Of a stretch of DNA of 64,000 bases, positions 2,278 through 29,992 are shown piece by piece. Location of the stretch: the sequence record DRR723986_6929; one strand, given 5' to 3'. Numbering within the stretch: position 1 is the first letter of the stretch; each line of letters opens with the position of its first letter. The position numbers and the translations under genes are program-made. The notes under the pieces are model-generated. The model was given only the letters and a program-made list of their open reading frames with translations, was not told where the DNA came from and searched no databases.

Positions 2278-2667
2278 ATGAAAGGCTGGCGTAAAATACT
2301 CTTACCGCTCCTTGCTTTTGCAGTGGCTGTTTGGCCAGTTGCGAGCCTGTCGGCGTATGCTGTCGAGACCGAGAGCAATTACGATACCTGTATCACCTCT
2401 TGGGACGGGATGTTGTCCAACCTTTCGTCACTTGCCACAAACGTTGGAGCCTCCGAGGAGGTTTTCTGCGGCCATTTTATGAGCGTTGAAGATATACCTT
2501 TGGAGAATACCGCGGCAGATTTTGTACCTGCTCCTCCTGTATTTACCCTGCAAAACCTTCGTTTTTTCGTACCTGATTTGAATTCACACATCGTGTTCAT
2601 CAATGCTGAGCATGCCCCCCACTCTCTAAATCCAGAAGTTGCTCCACACCCGCCCAAACACTGTTGA
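2278..2667 (+). CDS. Exported leader protein, CutF/DUF2946-like
   Basis: Signal peptide, Cys/His residues, ends PEVAPHPPKHC. Confidence 0.55.
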   Translation: MKGWRKILLPLLAFAVAVWPVASLSAYAVETESNYDTCITSWDGMLSNLSSLATNVGASEEVFCGHFMSVEDIPLENTAADFVPAPPVFTLQNLRFFVPDLNSHIVFINAEHAPHSLNPEVAPHPPKHC

Positions 2668-2779: not shown

Positions 2780-4117
2780 ATGAGAGCAATTTCTTACTGG
2801 GGCGTGGCTACCAGCATGGCATGCGCTGTGTCGGCACTGGGCCTGACCCCCACATACGCTCAGAGCACGGAACAAGCTCAAATTCTGGAACGGCTAGATA
2901 CGCTCCAGGCAGAGTTGGATGCACTGAAAAAACAGCTTGCAGAAACAAAAACGCAAGCAGATCAATCAAAGAAACTTGCCGAAAAAGCGGATAACCGTGC
3001 CCAAAAGGCGGTGTTGGCCGCTGATCAAGTGCGACCAAATGCCTGGCACATGGCAGGTTACGCCGATGTGGGTATTGAGTTCAGCGACGGTGAAAACTCA
3101 GACACCTTCACCAGCGGCAAGTTCAACCCCGCATTCCATTTCCTCTATAAAGATCTGGTTCTGTTCGAATCAGAGTTTCAGGTCACCACAATGGACGGCG
3201 GCGAAACCGACCTTGAACTGGAATATAGTCAACTTGATTTTCTGCTGCACGACAACGCGGTTCTGGTAGCAGGGAAGTTTCTCAGCCCTGTCGGTCAGTT
3301 TCAGGAACGGTTACACCCGAGCTGGATCAACCGATTGACAAATGCACCCGTCGGTTTTGGTCACGGCGGTATTCAGCCGCTTAGCGATGTGGGGCTTATG
3401 CTCAGGGGCGGTATCCCTGTCGGTGAGCGATTATTCACCTACTCCGTGGCGGTCGGTAACGGTCCGCGTCTGGGGCATGACGGTGTGGAACTGGAGGGCT
3501 TTGGTCGTGACGACAATTCAAACAAAGCCATCAGTGGGCGTGCGGCCTTCTTCCCTATTGATAATCTTGAAATTGGTGGCTCCTTCCTGTTTGCCAAAGT
3601 GACAGCCGAGGGGGAAGAGGAGCCCGACGACGATCACGATGACGACGAAGTCCTAGCGAGCGTGGTAGCTGATTCCGGCGACCTACAAGACCTGCCTCTG
3701 CGAGATTACGACCTGTGGGGGTTTGACGCCGCTTTTACTAAAGGCAATTGGGACATCCGCGCGGAGTATCTTAACGCCAATCTGAAGGGCCTTGGCGACC
3801 CAGACGATGATCATGGAGATGTGATCGAACCGCTCTCGTGGGAAGCCTGGTATGCCCAGGTCGCCTATCGTATGTCGGGTGTTTCAGACTCATCGTTTTT
3901 CCAGAAGCTTGAACCCGTTGTTCGCTACGGACGGTTCACAGTGGAAGGAGACCATGACCTGGAGGACGAACTCAACGAGAAAAGGTTTAACATTGGCCTT
4001 AACTATTGGGTTTCCCCGTCTGTAGTGGTCAAGAGCGCGATTGAATTCCGCAATTATATGGCCAGCGAGCGTGAAGACGATACCCGCCTTCAGCTTCAGT
4101 TGTCCTACGGTTTCTAA
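2780..4117 (+). CDS. Outer-membrane beta-barrel porin with N-terminal coiled coil
   Basis: Signal peptide, coiled coil, C-terminal LQLQLSYGF, acidic/His loops; GGAGAG RBS before ATG 2780. Confidence 0.75.
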   Translation: MRAISYWGVATSMACAVSALGLTPTYAQSTEQAQILERLDTLQAELDALKKQLAETKTQADQSKKLAEKADNRAQKAVLAADQVRPNAWHMAGYADVGIEFSDGENSDTFTSGKFNPAFHFLYKDLVLFESEFQVTTMDGGETDLELEYSQLDFLLHDNAVLVAGKFLSPVGQFQERLHPSWINRLTNAPVGFGHGGIQPLSDVGLMLRGGIPVGERLFTYSVAVGNGPRLGHDGVELEGFGRDDNSNKAISGRAAFFPIDNLEIGGSFLFAKVTAEGEEEPDDDHDDDEVLASVVADSGDLQDLPLRDYDLWGFDAAFTKGNWDIRAEYLNANLKGLGDPDDDHGDVIEPLSWEAWYAQVAYRMSGVSDSSFFQKLEPVVRYGRFTVEGDHDLEDELNEKRFNIGLNYWVSPSVVVKSAIEFRNYMASEREDDTRLQLQLSYGF

Positions 4118-10516: not shown

Positions 10517-10831
10517 ATGGCAAGTTACCTTAAAATATTACTGCTCTTTATTTTTGTCGCAGCGCCTGCTCTGGATATTGCGTTTCTGGACTCTAAGGAG
10601 CCGCCAAATCATATTGCTGAATCATTCCATGATACAGAAAACCAAACTCCGTCCGGCGATACCGATTTGCACTGTATTTGTCATGTGATCCATCACGGCA
10701 TGGCCTTTGGCAAAGCCGTGAACCGTGATATTGTCGCCCTATCAGGAGTGACATGGCCTATCGCCGATGACATTTTGCTTGGCTTACATCCAAAGCCAGG
10801 CCTGCATCCCCCTTCAACCCAACTCTCATAA
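10517..10831 (+). CDS. Exported leader protein, CzcI/CutF/DUF2946-like
   Basis: Signal peptide, HCICHVIHH, ends PKPGLHPPSTQLS. Confidence 0.6.
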   Translation: MASYLKILLLFIFVAAPALDIAFLDSKEPPNHIAESFHDTENQTPSGDTDLHCICHVIHHGMAFGKAVNRDIVALSGVTWPIADDILLGLHPKPGLHPPSTQLS

Positions 10832-18433: not shown

Positions 18434-20347
18434 ATGAACCGCATATTCCCTTTCATTTTCCCGCTGACATTTTTGTTAGCCATCGCGACGGCAATTCAGG
18501 CAGACACCGGCGACCAGTTGGTGCAACTCGTCGACTATGTTGGTGTGGACTATTCTGAAGCTGTTTCAGAAGGCATTATCGTCAATCCGGGTGAATATGC
18601 GGAAATGGTGGAGTTCACTGCCATAATCGAAACCACTGTGGCAAGTATCGCGGATTCTCCAATCGCGAGCGAATTGATGCAGCAAGCCCGTGAATTGAGT
18701 GAACTGATTAAAAATAAAGCCCCGGCTGGTGAAGTTCGGGCACTTGCGCATACCATGCGAACTGCCATCATCCACCTTTATGACTTGAAAGTGGCCCCTG
18801 ACCAGGTGCCCGATCTGCTGCAAGGCCAGACGTTATACCAAAAAACATGTGCGGCATGTCACGGAGCCTATGGCAACGGCAATGGGGAGCTGGGGAAAGA
18901 CCTGGACCCACAACCAACTGACTTCACAGAGGTAGCCCGCTTCCGGCAACGGTCATTGTATGCATTGTTTAATACAATCACTTACGGCGTTGAAGGGACT
19001 GGAATGTCAGATTATTCACAGCTTTCGACGGTAGATCGTTGGAATTTGGCTGCCTATGTAGGCAGTATTGGTGTCGATAAAGAGCTTGCGGCTAACGGCA
19101 AAAGGGCGTGGCAACAGCTTAACGGTAACGATACCGGAGTAGATGTGAAAGCCTATGCGGGCCTTTCGCCTGATGAGGCTATCGATCAATGGACCAATGG
19201 CTATGGGTTGATGGCATATTTGAGAACAGAACCTGAAGTTCTGTTTGATTTCAAAACGCCGCCGCTCACTGTGGCAATGAATTCGCTTCAAACCAGTTTG
19301 AACGCTTATGAGCAAGGCGAGACAAAAAAGGCCTACGAGTTCGCGCTCACCGCTTACCTTGATGGATTTGAGCTTGTGGAGGCAAATCTCGCCGCATTGG
19401 ATGCCAGTCTCATGCGGGAAATTGAGAGTGAGATGCTGCTGCTGCGCAATGATATCACCACTCAAAGCCCTTTAAACAGTGTCACTGCGCGCATCCAAAA
19501 ACTCCAGTCGTTGCTGCAACAAGCGCAATCAAAAATGGCTGAAAAGGGGAGCTTGACACCAGCTGCTGCATTCGTAACCAGCCTTATCATTTTACTCCGG
19601 GAAGGCCTGGAGGCTTTACTCGTTATTGTGGCGCTTTCGGCTTTCCTGTTGAAAACCGGCCGCCGGGACGCCATGCCCTACTTGCATGCTGGCTGGATCG
19701 CAGCGTTGATTTTAGGTCTGCTTACTTGGGTTGCGTCTGAATATTTTGTGCAAATCAGCGGAGCGACGCGAGAGGTTGCTGAAGGAGTTGCAGCACTCGT
19801 AGCGTCGGGTATGCTGTTATTCGTTGGCTATTGGCTTCATAGCAAAACAAGCGCGTCTGGATGGCAGGCATTCATTCAAAAAAGTCTTAAAGCTGCTCTC
19901 AATAAACGGACCCTATGGGGGCTCGCCGGACTTTCCTTCATATCCGTCTACAGGGAAGTTTTTGAGACAATTCTCTTTTATCAGGCACTATGGGCCCAGG
20001 CGGCGTCCGGTAGTGCTGACTGGGTGATGGGCGGTTTTCTGGTTGCCACACTTATACTGGTGCTTGTCGCGGGACTGGTTATAAAATTTAGTGTGAAGCT
20101 TCCACTACGACAGTTTTTTGCAAGTACGGGCATTCTTCTCCTGATTTTGTCTTTTATTTTTGCCGGCAAAGGCATTGCAGCCCTTCAGGAAGCGGGCGAA
20201 ATACCGCAAACGATGCTGCCGTTTGACGCTGTAGAGTGGTTGGGGATATTCCCCAGCCAGGAAGGCCTGCTTTTACAGGCTACCATTCTTGTTGCATCCG
20301 CAGCTTTTTTGACCAGAGGATTTTTCGCCAGACGGCAAAAAGAGTGA
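18434..20347 (+). CDS. Cytochrome c / FTR1 iron(lead) permease, PbrT/EfeU-like
   Basis: CAACH; REGLE and REVFE motifs. Confidence 0.9.
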   Translation: MNRIFPFIFPLTFLLAIATAIQADTGDQLVQLVDYVGVDYSEAVSEGIIVNPGEYAEMVEFTAIIETTVASIADSPIASELMQQARELSELIKNKAPAGEVRALAHTMRTAIIHLYDLKVAPDQVPDLLQGQTLYQKTCAACHGAYGNGNGELGKDLDPQPTDFTEVARFRQRSLYALFNTITYGVEGTGMSDYSQLSTVDRWNLAAYVGSIGVDKELAANGKRAWQQLNGNDTGVDVKAYAGLSPDEAIDQWTNGYGLMAYLRTEPEVLFDFKTPPLTVAMNSLQTSLNAYEQGETKKAYEFALTAYLDGFELVEANLAALDASLMREIESEMLLLRNDITTQSPLNSVTARIQKLQSLLQQAQSKMAEKGSLTPAAAFVTSLIILLREGLEALLVIVALSAFLLKTGRRDAMPYLHAGWIAALILGLLTWVASEYFVQISGATREVAEGVAALVASGMLLFVGYWLHSKTSASGWQAFIQKSLKAALNKRTLWGLAGLSFISVYREVFETILFYQALWAQAASGSADWVMGGFLVATLILVLVAGLVIKFSVKLPLRQFFASTGILLLILSFIFAGKGIAALQEAGEIPQTMLPFDAVEWLGIFPSQEGLLLQATILVASAAFLTRGFFARRQKE

Positions 20348-20549
20348 CAGATTTTCTTCCCGTCCACCGATTACTATAATGAATCTACCTTGGGTCAAGG
20401 ATATTTAATTTGTTGAAATTGGGCATTCAATTAAAGTTGACGGCGCTTAGGAATTAAAGAAACCCAAGGCCGCGGACACCCGCTTCCCGGGGGTTGAGCA
20501 CAAAAAAGTGACTTATACGAGAGCGGGTAGCTTGATACCGTGTGCTGGC

Positions 20550-20888
20550 ATGACAAACTTATCCCAACATATCTCAGCACTGGTTCTTATTGCATTCGTA
20601 GCAATGATCATCGATGTGATTGGCGTTTATGAAGCTGTCGCCCATGAAGACGCAACAGCCTCTATCGTCATGGGATGTCACGGTACGGAATCGCCAAGCG
20701 ATTGGGAACATGAAGAACCCTGTACCAGTGCCAGTGTTGTGCCCTGTCACTTCTGCGCCATTCTCATCACACTATCTGTTGAAAGCTCTGCCGGAGAATT
20801 TCAAGCTTTGAACCAAGGGCACCCTCAATATTTCACTGATACCATCGCTGAGCTTGACCCTGACCCACCCAAAACACTCCTCCTCTGA
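20550..20888 (+). CDS. Exported leader protein, CutF/DUF2946-like
   Basis: N-terminal hydrophobic segment, CHFC, ends ELDPDPPKTLLL. Confidence 0.65.
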   Translation: MTNLSQHISALVLIAFVAMIIDVIGVYEAVAHEDATASIVMGCHGTESPSDWEHEEPCTSASVVPCHFCAILITLSVESSAGEFQALNQGHPQYFTDTIAELDPDPPKTLLL

Positions 20889-20949
20889 TTTTAGATATTC
20901 ACGCGGCTTAGGTGCCGCAACGTTACAATAATCAATGGAGGAAAGGCGA

Positions 20950-21630
20950 ATGAAGCCTGTTTCCAACATATGCACCTCGTTATATGAGGCCAGAGACCAC
21001 GCTGTGATTGGTGTGAGCCCTTTCAATAGCTATTTTTCCGAAGCTCGACTTACGGACCTGTTTTCATGGGCGAAGCAGCACTTCAATAGTTTCCACGTGT
21101 TCGTGCCCGACGAAGCGACCCGCTACACGCTTGAAGCTGCGGGTTATAGCCAAGCACGGGCAAAGAAAAAAGCCAGACGGCAAGCAAACTATCTTCTGAA
21201 CAAGATCAAGCGGGCGCTATTGAAAACATCTCCCAAACTTGATCTCTCGTTTGTGCTCACAAATGGAGTGCTCAGAAACAATGGCCGCTATAATGCGCTT
21301 CTGGCAAAGGTTGAGCAGCGTTTTGCAACTGACAGGGTGTTCAGGCAGCAATGTCTGGAATGTACCCGCTGGGTCCTTGAAAATCAGGTCGAAGAAATCG
21401 ACACAATTGATGAGGCTGCGTTGTTACATGCTGTTCAGTATTTCCTCGAGGAAATGCCGCTCTTTATGGACAGTGCCAGCATCGTCAGCGCGCACACATC
21501 GGTGTTCTGCTATCATCAATGTCCTGCAGTCTTGCAAGGACTTTATGAGGACCGCTCAGACGGCCTCATAGATGAGCAACAGGGCTTCTTAATAGTCAAA
21601 AAGCCCATGCTGGCAACAAAAGTAACCTAA
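20950..21630 (+). CDS. tRNA-dependent cyclodipeptide synthase (NYH subfamily)
   Basis: HAVIGVSPFNSYF, YFLEEMPLF, CYHQ, QGFLIV; GGAGG RBS. Confidence 0.9.
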   Translation: MKPVSNICTSLYEARDHAVIGVSPFNSYFSEARLTDLFSWAKQHFNSFHVFVPDEATRYTLEAAGYSQARAKKKARRQANYLLNKIKRALLKTSPKLDLSFVLTNGVLRNNGRYNALLAKVEQRFATDRVFRQQCLECTRWVLENQVEEIDTIDEAALLHAVQYFLEEMPLFMDSASIVSAHTSVFCYHQCPAVLQGLYEDRSDGLIDEQQGFLIVKKPMLATKVT

Positions 21631-21664: not shown

Positions 21665-22075
21665 CTATTCTTCCAACAAACGATCAATAATAGCGCAGTC
21701 CGGGGTTTCACCGCCGCTGCATTCAGCAGCCATGCCTTCCAGTGCAGCTTGCATTTTGGCGAGGTCGTTGATTTTGCCAGCAATGACACCGGCATTGACG
21801 AGAGCAATATCTCTTACTTCATCGCAAGCGTATGACCCATCAACCATTTCCAATAGCCCTGTCACTTCCTGATTGGTAAAACCGAGTTCGCGCGACCTGC
21901 GGATAAACTTCAATCGCTTCAGATGATCCATTGAATAGCACCGATAGCCAGCTTCTGAGCGCGGCGGATCAGGCATAAGGCCAATTTTCTCATAAAAACG
22001 TATGGTCTCCAAGTTTACGCCAGCCTCTTTCGCCAGCTTGCCTCTCGTGTATTCACGTTTTTGAGATATGGTCAT
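21665..22075 (-). CDS. merR: Mercury-responsive regulator
   Basis: MerR HTH, three Cys, divergent from merTPA. Confidence 0.8.
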   Translation of the reverse strand: MTISQKREYTRGKLAKEAGVNLETIRFYEKIGLMPDPPRSEAGYRCYSMDHLKRLKFIRRSRELGFTNQEVTGLLEMVDGSYACDEVRDIALVNAGVIAGKINDLAKMQAALEGMAAECSGGETPDCAIIDRLLEE

Positions 22076-22082
22076 TTTTCTC

Positions 22083-22113
22083 TTTACCCTGTATTTAATA
22101 CAGGGTGTAGGCT
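22083..22113 (+). promoter_or_regulatory. mer promoter/operator
   Basis: TTTACC-19bp-TAGGCT; perfect dyad ACCCTGTATT-T-AATACAGGGT. Confidence 0.85.
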
Positions 22114-22199
22114 ACATGAAATTCAGCCGTAACGCAAATAGCATTTTGAACGAACACATAGACAAGAATGAAGTTAGTAATCAAAGAAAGACGACAGTA

Positions 22200-22574
22200 A
22201 TGAGTGATGTTAAACAGCCGGTGGACAGTAGCAAAAACTGGAGCACCAGCCTTGGTGCCGTTGGTGCAATATTGGCTTCGTCATGCTGTATTTTACCGTT
22301 TGTCTTCCTGATGCTGGGTGTTAGCGGCTCATGGATTGGCAACCTTACAGTTATGGAGCCTTATAAGGATTATTTTGCATTGATTGCGCTTGGGTTTTTG
22401 GGCGTCGGTTTTTGGCAGGTTTACTTCAAGCCAAAGAAACAATGCGATGAAGGCTACTGTGCAACGCCGAAGTCTGAGCGTGTCATCAAATCGGTTTTAT
22501 GGGTTTCCACAGTGCTGGTTTTGCTGGCGCTGACGGTTGATTTTTGGGCACCGATCCTCGGTGAATATATTTAA
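22200..22574 (+). CDS. merT: Mercuric transport protein
   Basis: ASSCCILP, WIGNLT, C-x4-CA, three TMs. Confidence 0.9.
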   Translation: MSDVKQPVDSSKNWSTSLGAVGAILASSCCILPFVFLMLGVSGSWIGNLTVMEPYKDYFALIALGFLGVGFWQVYFKPKKQCDEGYCATPKSERVIKSVLWVSTVLVLLALTVDFWAPILGEYI

Positions 22575-22589
22575 ACGTAAACAAGGAGA

Positions 22590-22931
22590 ATGAAGATGAA
22601 ACGATTGATCAAAGCATGTGCTATCGCCGTTGTACTCGGCGTGGCTATGCCGGTTACCGCTGTTATGGCGGATGATGCCAGCACGACGACACAGCAAGTT
22701 GCCGAAAAGAAAGTAACTTTCGATATTGAAAAAATGACCTGCGCCATGTGCCCGATCACAGTGCGCAAAGCGATGGAGAAGGTTGACGGTGTTTTATCTG
22801 TTGTAACTGATTATGACGCCAGAACAGCAGTTGTGACTTTTGACCCGGCAAAGGCAAATGTTGAAGCTATTGCCAAGGCCTCTGAAAATGCCGGTTACCC
22901 TGCTATTCTCGATGATAGCCAAGGCTCATAA
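22590..22931 (+). CDS. merP: Periplasmic mercury-binding protein
   Basis: Signal peptide, MTCAMCPITV. Confidence 0.9.
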   Translation: MKMKRLIKACAIAVVLGVAMPVTAVMADDASTTTQQVAEKKVTFDIEKMTCAMCPITVRKAMEKVDGVLSVVTDYDARTAVVTFDPAKANVEAIAKASENAGYPAILDDSQGS

Positions 22932-22933
22932 AT

Positions 22934-24379
22934 ATGGCGTTTGACAGACCAGAGAGCAGTTGCTGCTCACCGGAAAACACCGAAACCAAAACAAGTGTTA
23001 TGGTGATTGGTGCTGGCTCGGCAGGATTCTCAGCCGCAATTACGGCTGCAGAAGCAGGTGCAGTGGTAACACTTGTCGGCGCGGGCACCATTGGCGGCAC
23101 CTGCGTTAACGTTGGCTGTGTGCCGTCTAAAACCATGATCCGGGCTGTTGAAGCGCTTTATCAGGCCCCTCATGCCGCACGGTTTAATGGCATCACCTCC
23201 ACGGCTAAGGTGCTCGACTGGCAGGCCGTTGTCGCGCACAAGCAACAGCTTGTGGAAGAGTTACGCCAAGCCAAATATATTGACGTTCTGCCTGCCCATC
23301 CAGACGTGCATTATATAGAAGGTCGCGCACAGCTTACTGAAGACGGCGTTATGGTCGACGGCAAGCTTCATACGCCTGACAAGATTATCATAGCCACGGG
23401 TTCATCAAACATGGTGCCTCCGATCCCCGGTATTGAAACGGTTGATCATCTGGACAGTACGTCGGCCCTCGACCTTGAAACCCTCCCGAGTTCCATGATC
23501 ATCATTGGCGGCGGTGTAATCGGATGCGAACTTGGTCAAATGTTTGCCCGTGCTGGCGTTAAGGTCACAATATGCTGTCGCAGTCGTTTGGTGCCAGATA
23601 TGGAGCCCGAGATTAGCCAAGCTCTGCAAACCTATCTGGAGGCTGAAGGCATCACTGTATGCGCTGGCATTGGCTACCAAGCGATTGAACAGCACGGCGA
23701 CGGCATTAGGCTTCACTGTGAAAACAAAGGTCAGGCCAATATACTTGAGGCGGAAAAAGTTTTACTGGCCGCTGGGCGCAAACCAAACACGGCTGGCCTT
23801 GGACTTGAAGACGCGAGCGTTTCACTTGCCAGGAACGGCGGTATTGAAGTTGACGCTTTGATGCGCTCGACCAATCCCAATATTTATGCCGCTGGCGATG
23901 TTACGGGCACGGATATGTTTGTTTATATGGCGGCCTACGGAGCAAAGCTCGCCGCCCAGAATGCAACAGGCAGTGACACGCGGCCCTATAATAATGCTGC
24001 CATGCCTTCGGTTGTTTTTACTGACCCGCAAGTCAGCAGCGTTGGCCTGACGGAATCTCAGACTAAAGAGCAAGGCCACAGTGTGAAAACAAGCGTGATC
24101 ACGCTTGACCATGTACCGCGCTATCTGGCGGCGCGCGATACACGTGGTTTGATCAAGCTTATAGCTGACAGGGAGACGGACAAACTGCTGGGAGCCCATA
24201 TATTGGCACCCGAAGGCGGCGAACTCATTCAAACCGCTGTGATTGCCTTAAAGGCTAACATGACCGCAACAGAGCTGGGACAGACCATATTCCCGTACCT
24301 TACAGGGGTTGAAGGGCTCAAACTGGCCGCACAAACCTTCGATAAGGATGTCAGTACGCTATCTTGCTGCGCCGGATAA
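22934..24379 (+). CDS. merA: Mercuric reductase (no NmerA domain)
   Basis: GGTCVNVGCVPSK, C-terminal LSCCAG. Confidence 0.95.
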   Translation: MAFDRPESSCCSPENTETKTSVMVIGAGSAGFSAAITAAEAGAVVTLVGAGTIGGTCVNVGCVPSKTMIRAVEALYQAPHAARFNGITSTAKVLDWQAVVAHKQQLVEELRQAKYIDVLPAHPDVHYIEGRAQLTEDGVMVDGKLHTPDKIIIATGSSNMVPPIPGIETVDHLDSTSALDLETLPSSMIIIGGGVIGCELGQMFARAGVKVTICCRSRLVPDMEPEISQALQTYLEAEGITVCAGIGYQAIEQHGDGIRLHCENKGQANILEAEKVLLAAGRKPNTAGLGLEDASVSLARNGGIEVDALMRSTNPNIYAAGDVTGTDMFVYMAAYGAKLAAQNATGSDTRPYNNAAMPSVVFTDPQVSSVGLTESQTKEQGHSVKTSVITLDHVPRYLAARDTRGLIKLIADRETDKLLGAHILAPEGGELIQTAVIALKANMTATELGQTIFPYLTGVEGLKLAAQTFDKDVSTLSCCAG

Positions 24380-26463: not shown

Positions 26464-27462
26464 CTACAGGGCCTCCAAGAACGACAACAGCTCGTCGCCG
26501 GGTCGATAACGCCCATTTGGAGCATTGACAGGTTTCGTCAAAGCCATCGCTTTTTCCTTCAGTTCGATATCAGCGTGGATATAGACCTGCGTCGTCTCGA
26601 CGGATTCATGGCCCAGCCAAAGGGCGATGATGGTTCGATCTACACCGCTTTGTAGAAGCTGCATTGCAGCAGTGTGGCGCAGAACATGTGGTGTGACGCG
26701 CTTCAATCTAAGGGTCGTGCTATTCAGCGCTGCCTTGGCCGCATTTTTCCGAACAATTCGCTCAATCGCGTCCCTGCTCAAAGGCGTGCCTCGGATCGTC
26801 GCAAACAGCGGATCGTTGGATGCCGCACAGGTTTCGGCCAACCACACTTTCAATGCGTTTCGGCTGTCTGTCCTTAGAGGTGTTGCGCGCTCCTTTCGGC
26901 CTTTGCCCACGCATCTGACATGAGACCCCGTTCCGAGTTCAACATCAGCCACGCGCAGGCCGATCAATTCCGAGACACGCAAGCCCGTCTGGAGCGTGGT
27001 CAGCAGTAGGACCCGATCACGCCGACCGAACCAAGTCGACTGATCGGGTGCCTTCAGCAATGCCTCCATCTCATCGCGTGTCAGAAAGTCCACAACACGT
27101 TTTTCGTGCCGCTTGGACGGCATCGCCAGCACCCTTTGGCAATGATGCAACAATTGAGGTTCACAACCTGCCACATATTTGAAGAATGACCGAATGGCGG
27201 CAAGGCGCGTGTTTCGACTTCGTGCGCTATTGCCTCGTTCTTCTTCGCAAAAAGTTAAAAAATCCCCGATGATGTCGGCGTCGATATGTGCAACATGTAG
27301 GTCTGTTGGGGGCCGCTTGGTTTGCGCTTCCGCGTATTTGAGCAAGAGCCTGAAGGTGTCACGATAGCTGGCAATCGTGTTCGGGCTTGCCTGCATTTGC
27401 GTCAAGAGCCGCTCGGTAAAGAACCGTTGCACGAACACTGGCAATGGATAGGTCGCAATCAT
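26464..27462 (-). CDS. ritC: RIT tyrosine recombinase C
   Basis: TGLRVSE, HVLRH, LGH..TTQVY. Confidence 0.9.
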   Translation of the reverse strand: MIATYPLPVFVQRFFTERLLTQMQASPNTIASYRDTFRLLLKYAEAQTKRPPTDLHVAHIDADIIGDFLTFCEEERGNSARSRNTRLAAIRSFFKYVAGCEPQLLHHCQRVLAMPSKRHEKRVVDFLTRDEMEALLKAPDQSTWFGRRDRVLLLTTLQTGLRVSELIGLRVADVELGTGSHVRCVGKGRKERATPLRTDSRNALKVWLAETCAASNDPLFATIRGTPLSRDAIERIVRKNAAKAALNSTTLRLKRVTPHVLRHTAAMQLLQSGVDRTIIALWLGHESVETTQVYIHADIELKEKAMALTKPVNAPNGRYRPGDELLSFLEAL

Positions 27463-28403
27463 GATGCATCCTCCAAAACCCGCTGTTCGGCCCGCGCGGC
27501 GGCGAGCTGCATGAGTTCTGGCACGGCTTCGATGTACCAGAATGTGTGCTCCGGCTTAGAGTGTCCGAGATACGTGCTGAGCTTGTACATTTCGCATTCA
27601 ATGTCCCTGCCATCGCGGAACCAATCCAGAATGGTGTGGACGGCAAAGCTATGTCTCAAATCGTGAATGCGAGGTCCGTGACCGTGGCGGTTGAAGGATT
27701 GAGGGGATCGCAACCCGATATTTTGGCTAACTTGCGCGAAGTTGTAACGCGCCCCGCAATCGCCAGCCGGTTCACCATCTTCCTTGATGAAGAACCGTCG
27801 CGACTGATCGTCGACCAACCGATCTCTCAAATTGGCATAGGATGCTAGCCGCGTGGCGGTATCCTTGTTGATCGGAAGCTGTCGATCTTTTCCGTTCTTG
27901 GTGTTCCTGACGACCAGAACAGCGTTGTCCAGATCAATATCATGTTGATCCAAAGACAGTGCTTCATTGACCCGCATTCCTGTCACAGCGATCAATCCGA
28001 AGAGGGTTTGCCACAATGCAGCCCGCAGGCCATACGGTGACGTTAGTCGACCGGCCTCAGCGACGATATCTGCAATTTGCTTGGGTGCATATATGTACGG
28101 GACACGCCTTCTATAGCGGCCTGCAACAAGCTGGCTGGGCGGGATCTCGGTCTCATCGTCGTGTTCCGCAAGCCAGAAGGCAAATCTACGAACCATGCCG
28201 AGGCGACCAAACCACGTGTTGTTGTCCGCACTGCCATAGTTCTCTTTCCAGTCGAGGAACAAGGTTGTTGAGATCAGATGACGCCCGCTCTCATCGCCGT
28301 AAGTCGCGAACTTGCGTAGGACTCGTTCTTCGAAAGATAGGTCAAAACCCATCGCGCGGCGCAGTGCCAGATATTCGTCAAGCCGTTGTGAGAGCGTCTT
28401 CAT
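27459..28403 (-). CDS. ritB: RIT tyrosine recombinase B
   Basis: TGMRVNE, HDLRH, LSTYLGH..TFWY. Confidence 0.9.
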   Translation of the reverse strand: MKTLSQRLDEYLALRRAMGFDLSFEERVLRKFATYGDESGRHLISTTLFLDWKENYGSADNNTWFGRLGMVRRFAFWLAEHDDETEIPPSQLVAGRYRRRVPYIYAPKQIADIVAEAGRLTSPYGLRAALWQTLFGLIAVTGMRVNEALSLDQHDIDLDNAVLVVRNTKNGKDRQLPINKDTATRLASYANLRDRLVDDQSRRFFIKEDGEPAGDCGARYNFAQVSQNIGLRSPQSFNRHGHGPRIHDLRHSFAVHTILDWFRDGRDIECEMYKLSTYLGHSKPEHTFWYIEAVPELMQLAAARAEQRVLEDAS

Positions 28404-29647
28404 TGCACGTCCCCCGCAGTTGGCCAAGGGCGCGAGATTGAGCCCAGGGCATCCACATCGTGTTGCGCATAAATCGTCGTGGTCAGCGGAGACCGGTGAC
28501 GCAGCACGTCCCCAATGTCAGAGAGCGATGCACCCTTACGCAACATGTCAGTGGCAAGGCTGTGTCGTAGAATATGGGTGCCGATATAGGCTTGTGGCGG
28601 GCTGATTCCTGTTGCGTCATAAGCGTCACGCAAAATCCAGCGCAGGATTTGAGCATCCTTAAACCTCTTGAATGGCGGTTTTACCGAGACAAACAACGCA
28701 CGGGCCTGCCCCCGGCGTTCGTTCTGAATGTAATCCACAATCGCTTCGCCAACCTCTGCGGACATCGGCATCCGGTCTTGCAACTGTCCTTTGCCCCGGA
28801 TCAGTATCTCACCCGCACGCCAATCGATGTCATCTAACTCTATCGCTGTCACCTCTGGGGCTCGAAGGCCCAGACGGGCGATAAGCATCAGCATTGCATA
28901 GTTGCGTCGGCCTGTTTTCTTGTGACCTCGAACCACATCTAACAGGCGGTTGACTTGGTCTGGCTCGAGATATCGGGGGATGCCGGTCGGCTTTGGTTGC
29001 CGCGCCTTTGGCACCGATTTGCTCAGGTTCCGTTCTGTTTTTCCGCTCCAAAACAAGAATTGGAAGAGATTGCGAAGATGTGACGGACCAGTTTTGTCGC
29101 GCGGCGCATTTTGCTCTTCGCGTAGTCGGAGAATGAAGCCCGATATGTCGTCGGGTTTGATCGCATTCAAATCACCCAAACCCATACCGAATTTTGCAGT
29201 CAAAAAACGCTCGTAGAAGCGAAGGCAATGATAGATCGTATCGCTGGACAGCCCACGCTGAACGCGGAGATAGGTCTCGTACTCGCGTTTAAGGCAGGCT
29301 CTAGGGGTCATGTCCAACGGAGGGGGCAGACGTGTAGGGGCATCTGCGTTCTCAATCAAATAGTCCCTGAACCGATTCAGGCGGTATCGACAATGTTTTT
29401 GGTCTTTCGGAGAAGCGGCGTTGATGATCGGCAAGGCAAGTTGGTCCATGCGGTCATTGGTCAAATCAGCGGGACCAAGCTTGGCCGCATCCATTACAGA
29501 CCAAAGGGTCCCGGCTGTGGTGCCGTATTTGGCAACGGAACCCTGACTGTAACCCTCAGCCTCAATCTGTGACGCGAAGCGCTCCGAGTGGTTGCCCGTG
29601 TGCTTACTTGTCTTCGTCGGGCGATCTGATTGCGTGTCGTTTTCCAT
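28400..29647 (-). CDS. ritA: RIT tyrosine recombinase A
   Basis: LGLRAPE, HILRH, LRH..TTIY. Confidence 0.9.
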   Translation of the reverse strand: MENDTQSDRPTKTSKHTGNHSERFASQIEAEGYSQGSVAKYGTTAGTLWSVMDAAKLGPADLTNDRMDQLALPIINAASPKDQKHCRYRLNRFRDYLIENADAPTRLPPPLDMTPRACLKREYETYLRVQRGLSSDTIYHCLRFYERFLTAKFGMGLGDLNAIKPDDISGFILRLREEQNAPRDKTGPSHLRNLFQFLFWSGKTERNLSKSVPKARQPKPTGIPRYLEPDQVNRLLDVVRGHKKTGRRNYAMLMLIARLGLRAPEVTAIELDDIDWRAGEILIRGKGQLQDRMPMSAEVGEAIVDYIQNERRGQARALFVSVKPPFKRFKDAQILRWILRDAYDATGISPPQAYIGTHILRHSLATDMLRKGASLSDIGDVLRHRSPLTTTIYAQHDVDALGSISRPWPTAGDVQ

Positions 29648-29992
29648 AGGTATTTCCTTCATTTGGTTGAAGGGTAAACTTATCACAGATCACGAATGCA
29701 GACGCTCAGCGCGTGAACTTGGAGGTGCACACTGCGGACGAAGCGGACATCCTCAGTTCATACTTGAACGTCTGGATTTCGCCAGAAGCGGAAGGTCATC
29801 GGAGTCAAAATCACGACAGTTGAAAGGCTCGAACCGACCCAACGCGGACAGTTTTAATCCCCGGTATAAGGGTGTGTGTGGGCAAAAACATTTAACCCAT
29901 GTGCCAAATAAAAAAGCCACCGCTCGTCTGTGCTTATTTGTTTAGGCATTCCTTGGATTTCAAACCTATCAATACCAGGATTTGCTTAAATA

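Follow-up and report, generated by a model that had tools for sequence, protein, structure and literature searches.

The window analysed here, a stretch of 64,000 nucleotides from sequence record DRR723986_6929, is a czc/mer island. Within it, a short leader open reading frame (ORF) precedes the gene of a tRNA-dependent cyclodipeptide synthase (CDPS) and is separated from the CDPS start codon by 61 nt (Table 1). The corresponding gap measures 60–63 nt in close relatives and 46–107 nt in distant ones, where the start codons were chosen by the analyst. The leader ends in a proline motif, and the intervening RNA is predicted to fold over the CDPS gene's Shine-Dalgarno (SD) sequence.

Table 1. Positions of the features of the leader-CDPS locus and of two further CutF-like ORFs in the window.
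Feature	Position	Strand	Remarks
CutF-like ORF	2278–2667		before porin-like gene
CutF-like ORF	10517–10831		before czcC; CzcI position, followed by czcCBA
Conserved upstream box, GAGCAC-N6-GTGACTTA	20496–20515	+	35–54 nt before leader ATG
Leader ORF, 112 aa	20550–20888	+	ATG at 20550, stop TGA at 20886–20888
Signal-peptide-like N-terminus, residues 1–31	20550–20642	+	alignments inspected by eye
Cys cluster of the mature part	20676–20756	+	C43 (GCH), C58 (EPC), C66-H-F-C69 (PCHFCA)
C-terminal proline motif, D103-P-D-P-P-K108	20856–20873	+	PP codons at 20865–20870
Anti-SD arm, TCCTCCTCTGATT	20878–20890	+	spans last leader codons and stop codon
Inner hairpin, GCGGC/GCCGC	20903–20918	+	GCGGC 20903–20907, GCCGC 20914–20918
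SD arm, AATCAATGGAGGA	20930–20942	+	SD GGAGGA at 20937–20942, 7 nt before CDPS ATG
tRNA-dependent cyclodipeptide synthase (CDPS), 226 aa	20950–21630	+	PF16715, TIGR04539

The downstream gene is, by its sequence, a canonical, bona fide CDPS. Its product matches PF16715 with an E-value of 4.6e-62 (210 bits against a cut-off of 27, residues 2–217 of 226) and TIGR04539 with an E-value of 7.2e-70 (234.9 bits against a cut-off of 45). The alignment to AlbC runs at an offset of 14 (query 13–222, chain 27–236). The counterparts of the catalytic AlbC residues S37, Y178, E182, and Y202 are kept in this CDPS: across 16 relatives, S23, E168, and Y188 show no variation, and conservation of Y164 is 90% or higher. 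The closest solved relative is BtCDPS (E 5.7e-27), reported to make cyclo(Leu-Leu); BtCDPS is too distant for this activity to identify the product here. The biological roles of CDPS products are mostly unknown.

The leader ORF is a real coding sequence under purifying selection, and its product is a small Cys-rich pre-protein. Six close homologues share 68–82% identity with it, seven of nine matches among 1.84 billion representatives bear the leader motifs and add seven more distant homologues, and a metagenome scan yielded two loci; neither Pfam nor NCBIfam contains a match to the protein. The dN/dS ratio of the leader is 0.17–0.30, that of the CDPS 0.11–0.16. In pairs that include locus L002, whose CDPS is decayed while the neighbouring leader ORF is intact, the leader ratio reaches 0.38–0.52. 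AlphaFold2 (AF2) gives a model with a mean pLDDT of 59.7 that is confident only for an N-terminal helix (residues 5–38), a pattern also reported for CruR, and predicts the mature part to be unstructured.

Two alignments, A3 with 14 family members and the wider A6 with 15, define what is conserved in the peptide. As judged by eye in both, residues 1–31 resemble a signal peptide, in which a short n-region is followed by a hydrophobic core and by an A-x-A site (AVA) before HED, and distant family members carry classic n-regions rich in K/R. Four cysteines follow, CHFC among them. C58, C66, and C69 are invariant in A3, whose 14 sequences all keep the CXXC formed by C66-H-F-C69, and C43, C58, and C66 are invariant in A6. 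The second Cys of the CXXC has moved in the wider family, giving C-x3-C or C-x4-C, and is lost in L008, which has CQYA instead of CxxC. The peptide ends in DPDPPKTLLL; P106 and P107 are invariant, D103, P104, D105, and K108 each reach 90% conservation or more, and the PP motif is preserved through synonymous codon changes between loci. The family order in A6 is a signal-peptide-like N-terminus, GCH, C, C-x2-4-C, about 36–40 residues, [D/R/P]PP[K/R], one to four residues, and the stop. The distance from C69 to P106 is 36 residues, and in A6 it varies by a few residues only.

The two outer arms, TCCTCCTCTGATT and AATCAATGGAGGA, form a stem of 6 bp, a 2-nt mismatch, and 5 bp, with the leader stop codon inside the left arm and GGAGGA inside the right one. 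The minimum-free-energy (MFE) fold of 20860–20965 is this very structure, at -30.3 kcal/mol and a z-score of -3.06, and one in 200 dinucleotide shuffles folds as well. Pairing of the five SD bases with the segment that starts at the PP codons and extends six nucleotides past the stop has a probability of 1.0, against a shuffle mean of 0.29 (0/100 shuffles reach 1.0). A preliminary description of the locus, made from the letters of the window, had proposed that a hairpin covers the GGAGG of the CDPS gene, and these values bear it out; the positions that it gave, the hydrophobic N-terminus, CHFC, DPDPPK, and the inner GCGGC/GCCGC hairpin were likewise recovered as described.

The predicted masking recurs in the related loci. 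In a local partition-function test, pairing between the SD core and the PP-to-stop+6 segment is kept in all 16 loci, with probabilities of 0.42–1.0 in the predicted structures; the same pairing has means of 0.07–0.30 in shuffles, zero to five of 50 of which match the observed value. The MFE structures agree in seven of the eight close loci; L008 is the exception, with the SD paired to the PP codons themselves. DPP codons make the anti-SD in L040, L042, and L038. Across loci the SD pairing is upheld by differing sequences, and the inner hairpin of L008 reads GCAGC/GCTGC, a compensatory change. The local test was adopted in place of a cruder scan for the best duplex between the SD region and any part of the leader, which placed the PP/stop segment first in only 3/15 loci and, at the locus in the window, scored a site at 20643 best. 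We conclude that a predicted hairpin locks the CDPS SD, its partner arm lying between the PP codons and a point shortly after the leader stop. The structure alone requires neither stalling nor a ligand, because simple termination of a ribosome at 20886 would be enough to open it.

The leader accompanies the CDPS in 16 distinct loci of Alpha- and Gammaproteobacteria, which are related and represent about nine lineages rather than 16 independent cases. Among 80 CDPS loci scanned, 12 have a leader-like ORF upstream, and they belong to Kordiimonadaceae, Parvularculaceae, Lysobacterales, Kangiella, and Pleionea; four actinobacterial upstream ORFs in the same scan were rejected as chance ORFs. The pair lies behind an FTR1-cytochrome c gene in the window and in L001, behind an unrelated opposite-strand gene in L006, behind a P-type ATPase in L007, and in yet another context in L008. 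The linkage of the leader is with the CDPS rather than with the other genes around it. Genes of mer systems lie within 2.5 kb of six of the 12 leader loci: merRTPA in L031–33, and merB, alone or together with merA, in L038, L039, and L042.

The upstream box is the sole block before the leader that is common to the window, L001, L006, L007, and L008; the genes farther upstream differ. It could serve as a promoter or operator element or belong to the 5' UTR; a promoter scan placed no sigma-70 consensus at it and gave no usable hit ahead of the leader. A perfect TATAAT with a poor -35 was seen by eye at 20376–20381 and is not relied on here. A terminator scan detected no terminator between the leader and the CDPS. 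Rfam returned two chance-level matches for 20200–21100 (E 5.5 and 9.4, far under the gathering score), and we therefore assign this region to no known riboswitch or leader family. Control of the leader by MerR was considered and rejected, as the mer operator palindrome ACCCTGTATT/AATACAGGGT (22086–22106) has no counterpart in 20340–20560.

Among known leaders, the closest parallel is CutF of the Rhodobacter capsulatus cutFOG operon. CutF, a protein of 118 aa, carries a Sec signal, a pair of upstream Cys plus a CxxxC, and the C-terminus PEPEGPPPRL, and a stem-loop shields the SD of cutO (PMC9973294; bioRxiv 10.1101/2025.02.05.636593). The likeness extends to almost every feature: both are small pre-proteins, with a Sec-type signal in CutF and a signal-peptide-like N-terminus in the leader; both have two upstream Cys followed by CxxxC (CutF) or CxxC (leader), and some 36–40 residues from there to the prolines. 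PEPEGPPPRL and DPDPPKTLLL share the alternation of acidic residues and proline, PP(P), a basic residue, and a few residues before the stop, and in both the gap to the next gene is short and carries a stem-loop (predicted in our case) over the next SD, in a metal-resistance context. The operational criteria published for CutF-like upstream ORFs ask for a length under 150 aa, a PP among the final 15 residues, an N-terminal signal peptide, a same-strand gene close downstream, and a stem-loop over its SD (PMC9973294). The leader agrees with this in length and in the position of P106-P107, five and six residues from its end, and by eye its N-terminus is signal-peptide-like; it also agrees in the short gap to a gene on the same strand and in the predicted SD-shielding stem-loop. 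The differences concern the prolines, PPP in CutF and PP in the CDPS leader family; the target, a periplasmic copper oxidase for CutF and a cytoplasmic tRNA-dependent biosynthetic enzyme here; and the metal, copper for CutF, whereas the neighbours of the CDPS leaders point to mercury. Two prolines stall less strongly than three.

The preliminary description had likened the locus to both CutF and CruR, and the likeness to CutF stands, including the C-terminus, while the PP motif and spacing of CruR differ. CruR (Bp2923 of Bordetella pertussis; PF11162/DUF2946) shares with the leader an upstream ORF, a CXXC, a C-terminal motif that contains PP, a conserved CXXC-to-PP spacing, a 3' end with a C>G stretch, and poor predicted structure (PMC9426467). 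CruR has RAPP, a spacing of 45 residues, an unstructured intergenic region of 162 nt, and a Rho-dependent read-out, and it acts independently of its signal peptide (PMC9426467); the leader differs in having DPPK, a spacing of 36 residues, and a 61-nt region with an SD-hiding hairpin. RAPP is never present in the leader family, which has [D/R/P]PP[K/R]; 14 comparison DUF2946 ORFs all end in RAPP plus two to five residues, but were chosen by that motif. The comparison with the DUF2946 profile that had been proposed was negative: PF11162 did not match the leader in the window at E 0.1 or any of 14 family members at E 10, and a six-frame search of genome G001 hit two other places and none at the CDPS locus on contig C22. 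A profile comparison (hhalign) of A3 with 14 local DUF2946 ORFs gave a non-significant probability of 13% (P 0.002), in an alignment that keeps the hydrophobic helix, the first Cys, and the CxxC in the same order, and the wider A6 gave 1.5%. By features, the nearest named Atlas cluster has DUF2946 in 26% of its members at a score of 0.95, which serves as a lead only.

The architecture also recalls SecM, VemP, and MifM, in which an exported nascent chain carries a C-terminal arrest motif and the stalled ribosome opens an SD-hiding hairpin; these proteins monitor how active secretion is and regulate components of Sec or YidC. The leader resembles them in its putatively exported chain, its C-terminal arrest-type motif, and the hairpin over the next SD. 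Unlike them, it bears a Cys cluster and precedes a metabolite synthase.

Two more ORFs in the window show the CutF-like design. Like the CDPS leader, they have a signal-peptide-like N-terminus, a Cys/His motif, and a PP ending, in their case HPPK.. or HPPS..; unlike it, they lie before genes of an outer-membrane efflux protein and a porin-like protein, which CutF-like genes usually have as neighbours, and their sequences are unrelated to it. The SD of the gene after 10517–10831 pairs with the PP-to-stop segment with a probability of 0.99 (0/100 shuffles), which upholds the earlier proposal that the design recurs three times in the island; for 2278–2667 the pairing is weaker (probability 0.52, 7/100 shuffles) and the fold z-score only 0.10. 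Comparisons of the three leader peptides gave no significant mutual similarity, in keeping with that proposal.

These observations make it moderately probable that the translated leader acts in cis as a CutF-type sensor and governs CDPS translation. The nascent leader would be exported co-translationally, its Cys cluster would meet a putative ligand outside the cytoplasm, and the ribosome would then dwell on D-P-P-K near the end of the ORF. With P106/P107 in the decoding centre, the ribosome would cover about 11–15 nt downstream, reaching into TCCTCC at 20878–20883; it would thereby melt the anti-SD arm and free GGAGGA, so that another ribosome could initiate on the CDPS. Without the ligand, the leader would be finished quickly, the hairpin would re-form, and little CDPS would be made. 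The putative ligand might either increase or decrease stalling. We infer a metal dependence of the leader from its setting: the ligand is probably a thiophilic metal, since half of the leader loci lie beside mer genes, with Hg(II) or another such metal, for example Cu(I), most likely. A more specific proposal, possible but rather doubtful, is that a transmembrane arrest peptide, from a sequence family missed by current models, senses periplasmic Hg(II) or another thiophilic metal via its four Cys and switches the CDPS on when needed, with the diketopiperazine as a hitherto unrecognised accessory of mercury or metal defence and the pair as a mobile module of mer operons.

Plain translational coupling would account for part of the same data. 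The leader would be a stable secreted or membrane protein with a metal-handling role of its own, and the hairpin would tie the CDPS to leader translation without ligand-dependent stalling. A stop codon inside the anti-SD arm means that every terminating ribosome opens the stem, and both the purifying selection on the leader protein and the intact ORF in L002, retained although the CDPS is decayed, suit such a protein. We nevertheless consider coupling rather unlikely. It leaves unexplained the invariant PP and the K/R placed one to four codons before the stop and kept through synonymous changes, the conserved Cys-to-PP distance, and a signal peptide (judged by eye) on the partner of a cytoplasmic enzyme; moreover, the mature part is predicted by AF2 to be unstructured, and selection on the ORF relaxes when the CDPS is lost. 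A polarity mechanism of the CruR type, acting either alone or together with SD masking, seems improbable to us. In it, a ribosome paused on the PP motif would protect a site for Rho loading within the leader's C-rich 3' third, and once the pause ended Rho would stop transcription ahead of the CDPS. A C>G stretch extends from about 20714 to 20921, with a GC skew down to -0.47 at 20818–20895, which resembles the C>G bubble mapped as the cruR rut region (PMC9426467). The intergenic region here, however, is short and structured, whereas that of cruR is longer and must be unstructured (PMC9426467); the feature conserved across the 16 loci is the SD pairing, and no terminator-like site lies between leader and CDPS.

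It is very improbable that the Cys-rich peptide is a substrate, scaffold, or carrier of the CDPS-like enzyme, as in a RiPP-like pathway. Only the tight, conserved pairing of the genes speaks for such a role; the enzyme is a canonical CDPS that keeps the residues aligned with the catalytic ones of AlbC, an export signal (judged by eye) lies on the peptide and none on the enzyme, and the conserved C-terminal feature is the PP motif over the anti-SD. To a functionless chance ORF with a chance hairpin we give hardly any credence: nothing but the absence of database annotation favours it, and the frame, the motifs, and the pairing are conserved in 16 loci at a leader dN/dS below 0.3. Sensory control of the CutF type remains the reading that we prefer.

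The leader is probably of a known kind, CutF-type, and we regard the leader family and the class of its putative target, a biosynthetic enzyme, as new. The preliminary description had called such a leader unfamiliar on biosynthetic enzymes, and a literature search gave no counterpart: it retrieved no CDPS linked to such a leader or to metal genes, although the supplementary neighbour lists of two surveys may hold rare cases (PMC9973294, PMC9426467). To our knowledge, control by leaders of this type has been shown experimentally for copper only, in the CutF and CruR systems, and the catalogued targets of CutF/CruR-type leaders are envelope transport or detoxification proteins. If our preferred reading is true, the CutF principle would extend to a leader family not recognised by the DUF2946 model, so that surveys built on that model would undercount such switches; it would extend probably to another metal, and also to a cytoplasmic enzyme of secondary metabolism. 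CDPSs would gain a testable physiological setting, with a whole proteobacterial group of them beside mercury and heavy-metal genes. Should the more specific proposal of a periplasmic metal sensor also be true, the diketopiperazine would act as a chelator, shuttle, or signal in the defence against mercury or other metals.

The leader is an open frame of 112 codons that begins at ATG 20550 and ends at TGA 20886–20888, upstream of the cyclodipeptide synthase (CDPS) gene. Its translation contains every element named in the preliminary description: a hydrophobic N-terminus, the motif C66-H-F-C69, and the terminal DPDPPK, within the C-terminus D-P-D-P-P-K-T-L-L-L. The peptide has no family match in Pfam or NCBIfam. 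Six close homologues (112–117 residues) are 68–82% identical to it, and a profile run against 1.84 billion representatives returned nine hits, seven of which show the family motifs; the long repeat proteins P0012 and P0015, also among the nine, were judged false relatives. Residues C58, P65-C66, C69-A70, and P106-P107 are invariant in 14 leader members, and conservation is 90% or higher at G42-C43-H44, D103-P104-D105, and K108. Pairwise dN/dS is 0.17–0.30 for the leader versus 0.11–0.16 for CDPS, and the proline-motif codons vary synonymously between loci (CCT/CCG/CCC, GAC/GAT, CCA/CCT). Given the low dN/dS and a proline motif that survives silent codon changes, the ORF is, judged by its sequence, translated and selected as a protein. 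P0009, a 222-residue protein called from a metagenome, has a leader-like part that reads stop-free through the intergenic region into the CDPS start and carries PWHMC in place of PCxxC; either gene decay or a sequencing error explains it. Upstream of the leader, the 202 nt of window 20348–20549 are 87–93% identical in the five closest loci, versus 80–87% for the leader ORF, and include no obvious Shine-Dalgarno (SD) sequence ahead of the leader ATG. Across differing genomic contexts, only GAGCAC-N6-GTGAnTTA (20496–20515) and TTGATAC (~20531–20537) persist in this upstream region.

Computation shows a selected small ORF, obligately paired with CDPS, whose PP-to-stop segment sequesters the CDPS SD in a conserved way. 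The pairing that had been proposed for the window, two arms closing over the SD around an inner GCGGC/GCCGC hairpin, lies where it was placed and is the minimum free energy fold. The arms form 6 bp followed, after a 2-nt mismatch, by another 5 bp, and the optimal structure of 20860–20965 is exactly this stem plus the inner hairpin (−30.3 kcal/mol, z −3.06; one of 200 shuffles is as stable). Base-pair probabilities were computed in 16 distinct loci over a region reaching 12 nt upstream of the PP codons and 12 nt beyond the CDPS start. In 16/16 loci, which represent about nine lineages rather than 16 independent cases, the five bases of the SD pair with a stretch that opens at the first PP nucleotide and closes 6 nt after the leader stop (P 0.42–1.0); shuffling the 5' part gives means of 0.07–0.30, and 0–5 of 50 shuffles reach the observed value. 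The pairing sequences vary by locus: TCCTCC/GGAGGA in the window, CTTTC/GAAGG in L006, CCGCCUC with GAGGC in L042, the DPP codons themselves in L040 (GAUCCUCC with GAGGAU), and an arm that includes the stop in Kangiella (UUAAUUUUA). Across eight close loci, RNAalifold retains three elements (outer stem, TGA:TCA stem, inner hairpin), with modest covariation (double changes in 3 of 17 pairs). A cruder scan, ranking duplexes between the whole leader and the SD region by strength, placed the PP/stop window on top in only 3 of 15 loci and does not support the design.

Features of the leader–CDPS region and of the porin-like locus (window coordinates)
Feature	Position	Remark
Cytochrome c domain + FTR1/EfeU-type permease fusion, 658 aa	18371–20347	Precedes leader
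Anti-SD arm TCCTCCTCTGATT	20878–20890	Complementary to SD arm
Inner hairpin GCGGC/GCCGC	20903–20907 / 20914–20918	Enclosed by SD stem
SD arm AATCAATGGAGGA	20930–20942	Complementary to anti-SD arm
SD GGAGGA	20937–20942	7 nt ahead of CDPS ATG 20950
Porin-like gene	2780–4117	Porin_O_P, E 3.8e-5

The gene after the leader encodes a full-length CDPS (PF16715, E 4.6e-62; TIGR04539, E 7.2e-70), and the residues aligning with the catalytic Ser, Tyr, Glu, and Tyr of AlbC are conserved. Both the window and Kordiimonas aquimaris (L001) have the leader–CDPS pair 3' of the FTR1-cytochrome c gene. This fusion gene is retained in L001 and in the MAG L002 and is absent from three more diverged relatives in the genus of K. 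aquimaris, L006, L007, and L008, with CDPS 73%, 68%, and 62% identical to the window's; there the upstream neighbour is an unrelated opposite-strand gene (L006) or a P-type ATPase (L007), and L008 presents yet another context. In L002, CDPS is a remnant (2388–2500) in which ATG has become ATA and the frame is lost after ~40 codons. The leader of this MAG is still open, the hairpin and downstream mer operon are retained despite the CDPS decay, and leader dN/dS is highest in pairs with this locus (0.38–0.52).

A scan of 700 nt upstream in each of 80 loci around CDPS relatives flagged 16 by script, and a leader-like ORF was accepted in 12: four Kordiimonadaceae (genomes shared with L001 and L006–L008), five Marinicaulis/Parvularculaceae, one Lysobacterales MAG, one Kangiella, and Pleionea mediterranea. 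L068, L074, L080, and L087 were rejected as GC-rich actinobacterial frames without a signal peptide or Cys pattern. The distant leaders are 15–20% identical to the window leader and have its plan in common: a K/R-rich classic signal peptide, GCH, an acidic stretch closing in C, C-x2-4-C, ~36–40 residues, [D/R/P]PP[K/R], 1–4 residues, and the stop. A quick tree built from 81 CDPS rows places every one of the 13 leader-associated rows inside one 20-row proteobacterial group (aLRT 94, branch not starred), and leader presence requires at least four label changes; the leader-associated CDPS may have a single origin. Two genes past the pair in Pleionea lies a gene for a class II aminoacyl-tRNA synthetase of the D/K/N type (L058 4060–5460, minus strand; E 1.1e-60), which might bear on the CDPS substrate.

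The main-text account of CutF, the Rhodobacter capsulatus leader, describes 118 residues with a Sec signal, C41xxxC45 (mature numbering) preceded by two further Cys, the C-terminus P109-EPEGPPPRL-118, and a stem-loop that covers the SD of cutO; copper on the exported nascent chain holds the ribosome at PPP, and the stem-loop melts (PMC9973294; bioRxiv 10.1101/2025.02.05.636593). The window leader has equivalent parts in identical order: a ~31-residue signal-like N-terminus, judged by eye, C66xxC69 with C43 and C58 ahead of it, a 36-residue interval before P106-P107, a run of acidic residues and prolines leading into PP, one basic residue, four more residues, the stop, and a 61-nt hairpin hiding the SD. 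As in the operational definition of CutF-like proteins, it is shorter than 150 residues, has PP within its last 15, carries a Cys motif, and lies a short distance ahead of a same-strand gene. The CutF/CruR-like layout first suggested for it thus agrees with CutF as published there. AlphaFold is confident only for the N-terminal helix, as the main text reports for CruR, the Bordetella pertussis DUF2946 (PF11162) leader (PMC9426467). The suggested comparison with DUF2946 itself turned out negative: the HMM finds no match in the 14 leader members even at E 10, and a six-frame search of genome G001 finds nothing at its homologous leader locus. The leader differs from this family in having no RAPP and a Cys-to-PP spacing of 36 residues versus 45, and profile-profile probabilities against 14 DUF2946 ORFs of related genomes are 13% and 1.5%. 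In a protein-language-model atlas, the nearest named cluster (score 0.95) carries DUF2946 in 26% of members, a proximity we treat as a lead only. By the sequence criteria of membership, the leader is outside DUF2946.

The remaining steps of the mechanism would follow the CutF precedent and ribosome geometry. A ribosome reaches roughly 11–15 nt 3' of its P-site codon; therefore, one held at P106/P107 (20865–20870) would unwind TCCTCC (20878–20883) and free GGAGGA. Plain translational coupling, in which the terminating ribosome opens the hairpin with no sensory pause, is the main rival because that ribosome would likewise unwind TCCTCC and free the SD, briefly. Four features favour a sensory pause over coupling: PP plus K/R is invariant, the distance from Cys to PP is conserved, the partner of a cytoplasmic enzyme carries an apparent export signal, and selection on the leader relaxes where CDPS is lost. 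A Rho-dependent component like that of CruR may also operate: C exceeds G over 20714–20921 (the last third of the leader plus the intergenic start), with GC skew down to −0.47, and this stretch resembles the Rho-loading region described for cruR in the main text of PMC9426467.

The window is a metal island, with a MerR-family regulator, a CDF transporter, czcCBA (assigned from translations), and merR-merTPA immediately 3' of CDPS. Six of the 12 leader loci have mercury genes within 2.5 kb, arranged either as merRTPA (L031–33) or as merB with or without merA (L038, L039, and L042); the leader locus L043 encodes a CzcA with 82% identity to that of the window, and two short contigs and two gammaproteobacterial leader loci show none of these. 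Given the four cysteines and this neighbourhood, Hg(II) would be the first candidate signal and Cu(I) the second. Between merR and merT, a perfect 10-nt inverted repeat, ACCCTGTATT/AATACAGGGT (22086–22106), is likely the mer operator. Even where no leader is present, the CDPS group related to the window's repeatedly adjoins mercury or heavy-metal genes (L031–L110; window 21665–24379), namely merB (L036, L037, L041, L055, L096), MerA at 45% identity (L049), MerR and MerT (L050), and, as efflux genes, a CDF transporter or CzcA (L047, L048, L085). At least one window metal protein is matched in 24 of the 80 loci, many by MerR-family matches only. Three adjacent minus-strand ORFs of 332, 322, and 428 aa (26464–29686), tyrosine-recombinase-like by eye and each with an LRH box, suggest that the island is part of a mobile element.

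Two further ORFs in the window support the earlier proposal that the design occurs three times in the island. The ORF at 10517–10831 (104 aa) occupies the CzcI position before czcC (10915), with a signal-like N-terminus, CICHVIHH, and the C-terminus HPPSTQLS; its TAA stop lies in a hairpin arm pairing with GAGAG ahead of the czcC ATG (z −3.18; SD pairing P 0.99, reached by 0 of 100 shuffles). The ORF at 2278–2667 (129 aa) has a signal-like N-terminus and the C-terminus APHPPKHC and lies 112 nt upstream of the porin-like gene; the SD of this gene pairs with the PP-to-stop segment at P 0.52 (reached by 7 of 100 shuffles), and with a fold z of 0.10 this is a weaker case of the design.

Targets given in the main texts for CutF/CruR-type leaders are efflux, TonB-dependent, chaperone, and oxidase genes (PMC9973294, PMC9426467). 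The word cyclodipeptide is absent from these main texts, and the literature search returned no paper tying CDPS to mer or heavy-metal resistance or to uORF stalling or coupling, in line with the initial remark that no such leader was known on a biosynthetic enzyme. Because none of these sources makes the link, we rate as new an apparently CutF-like architecture, itself already known, that occurs in a sequence family outside DUF2946 and would act on a new class of target.
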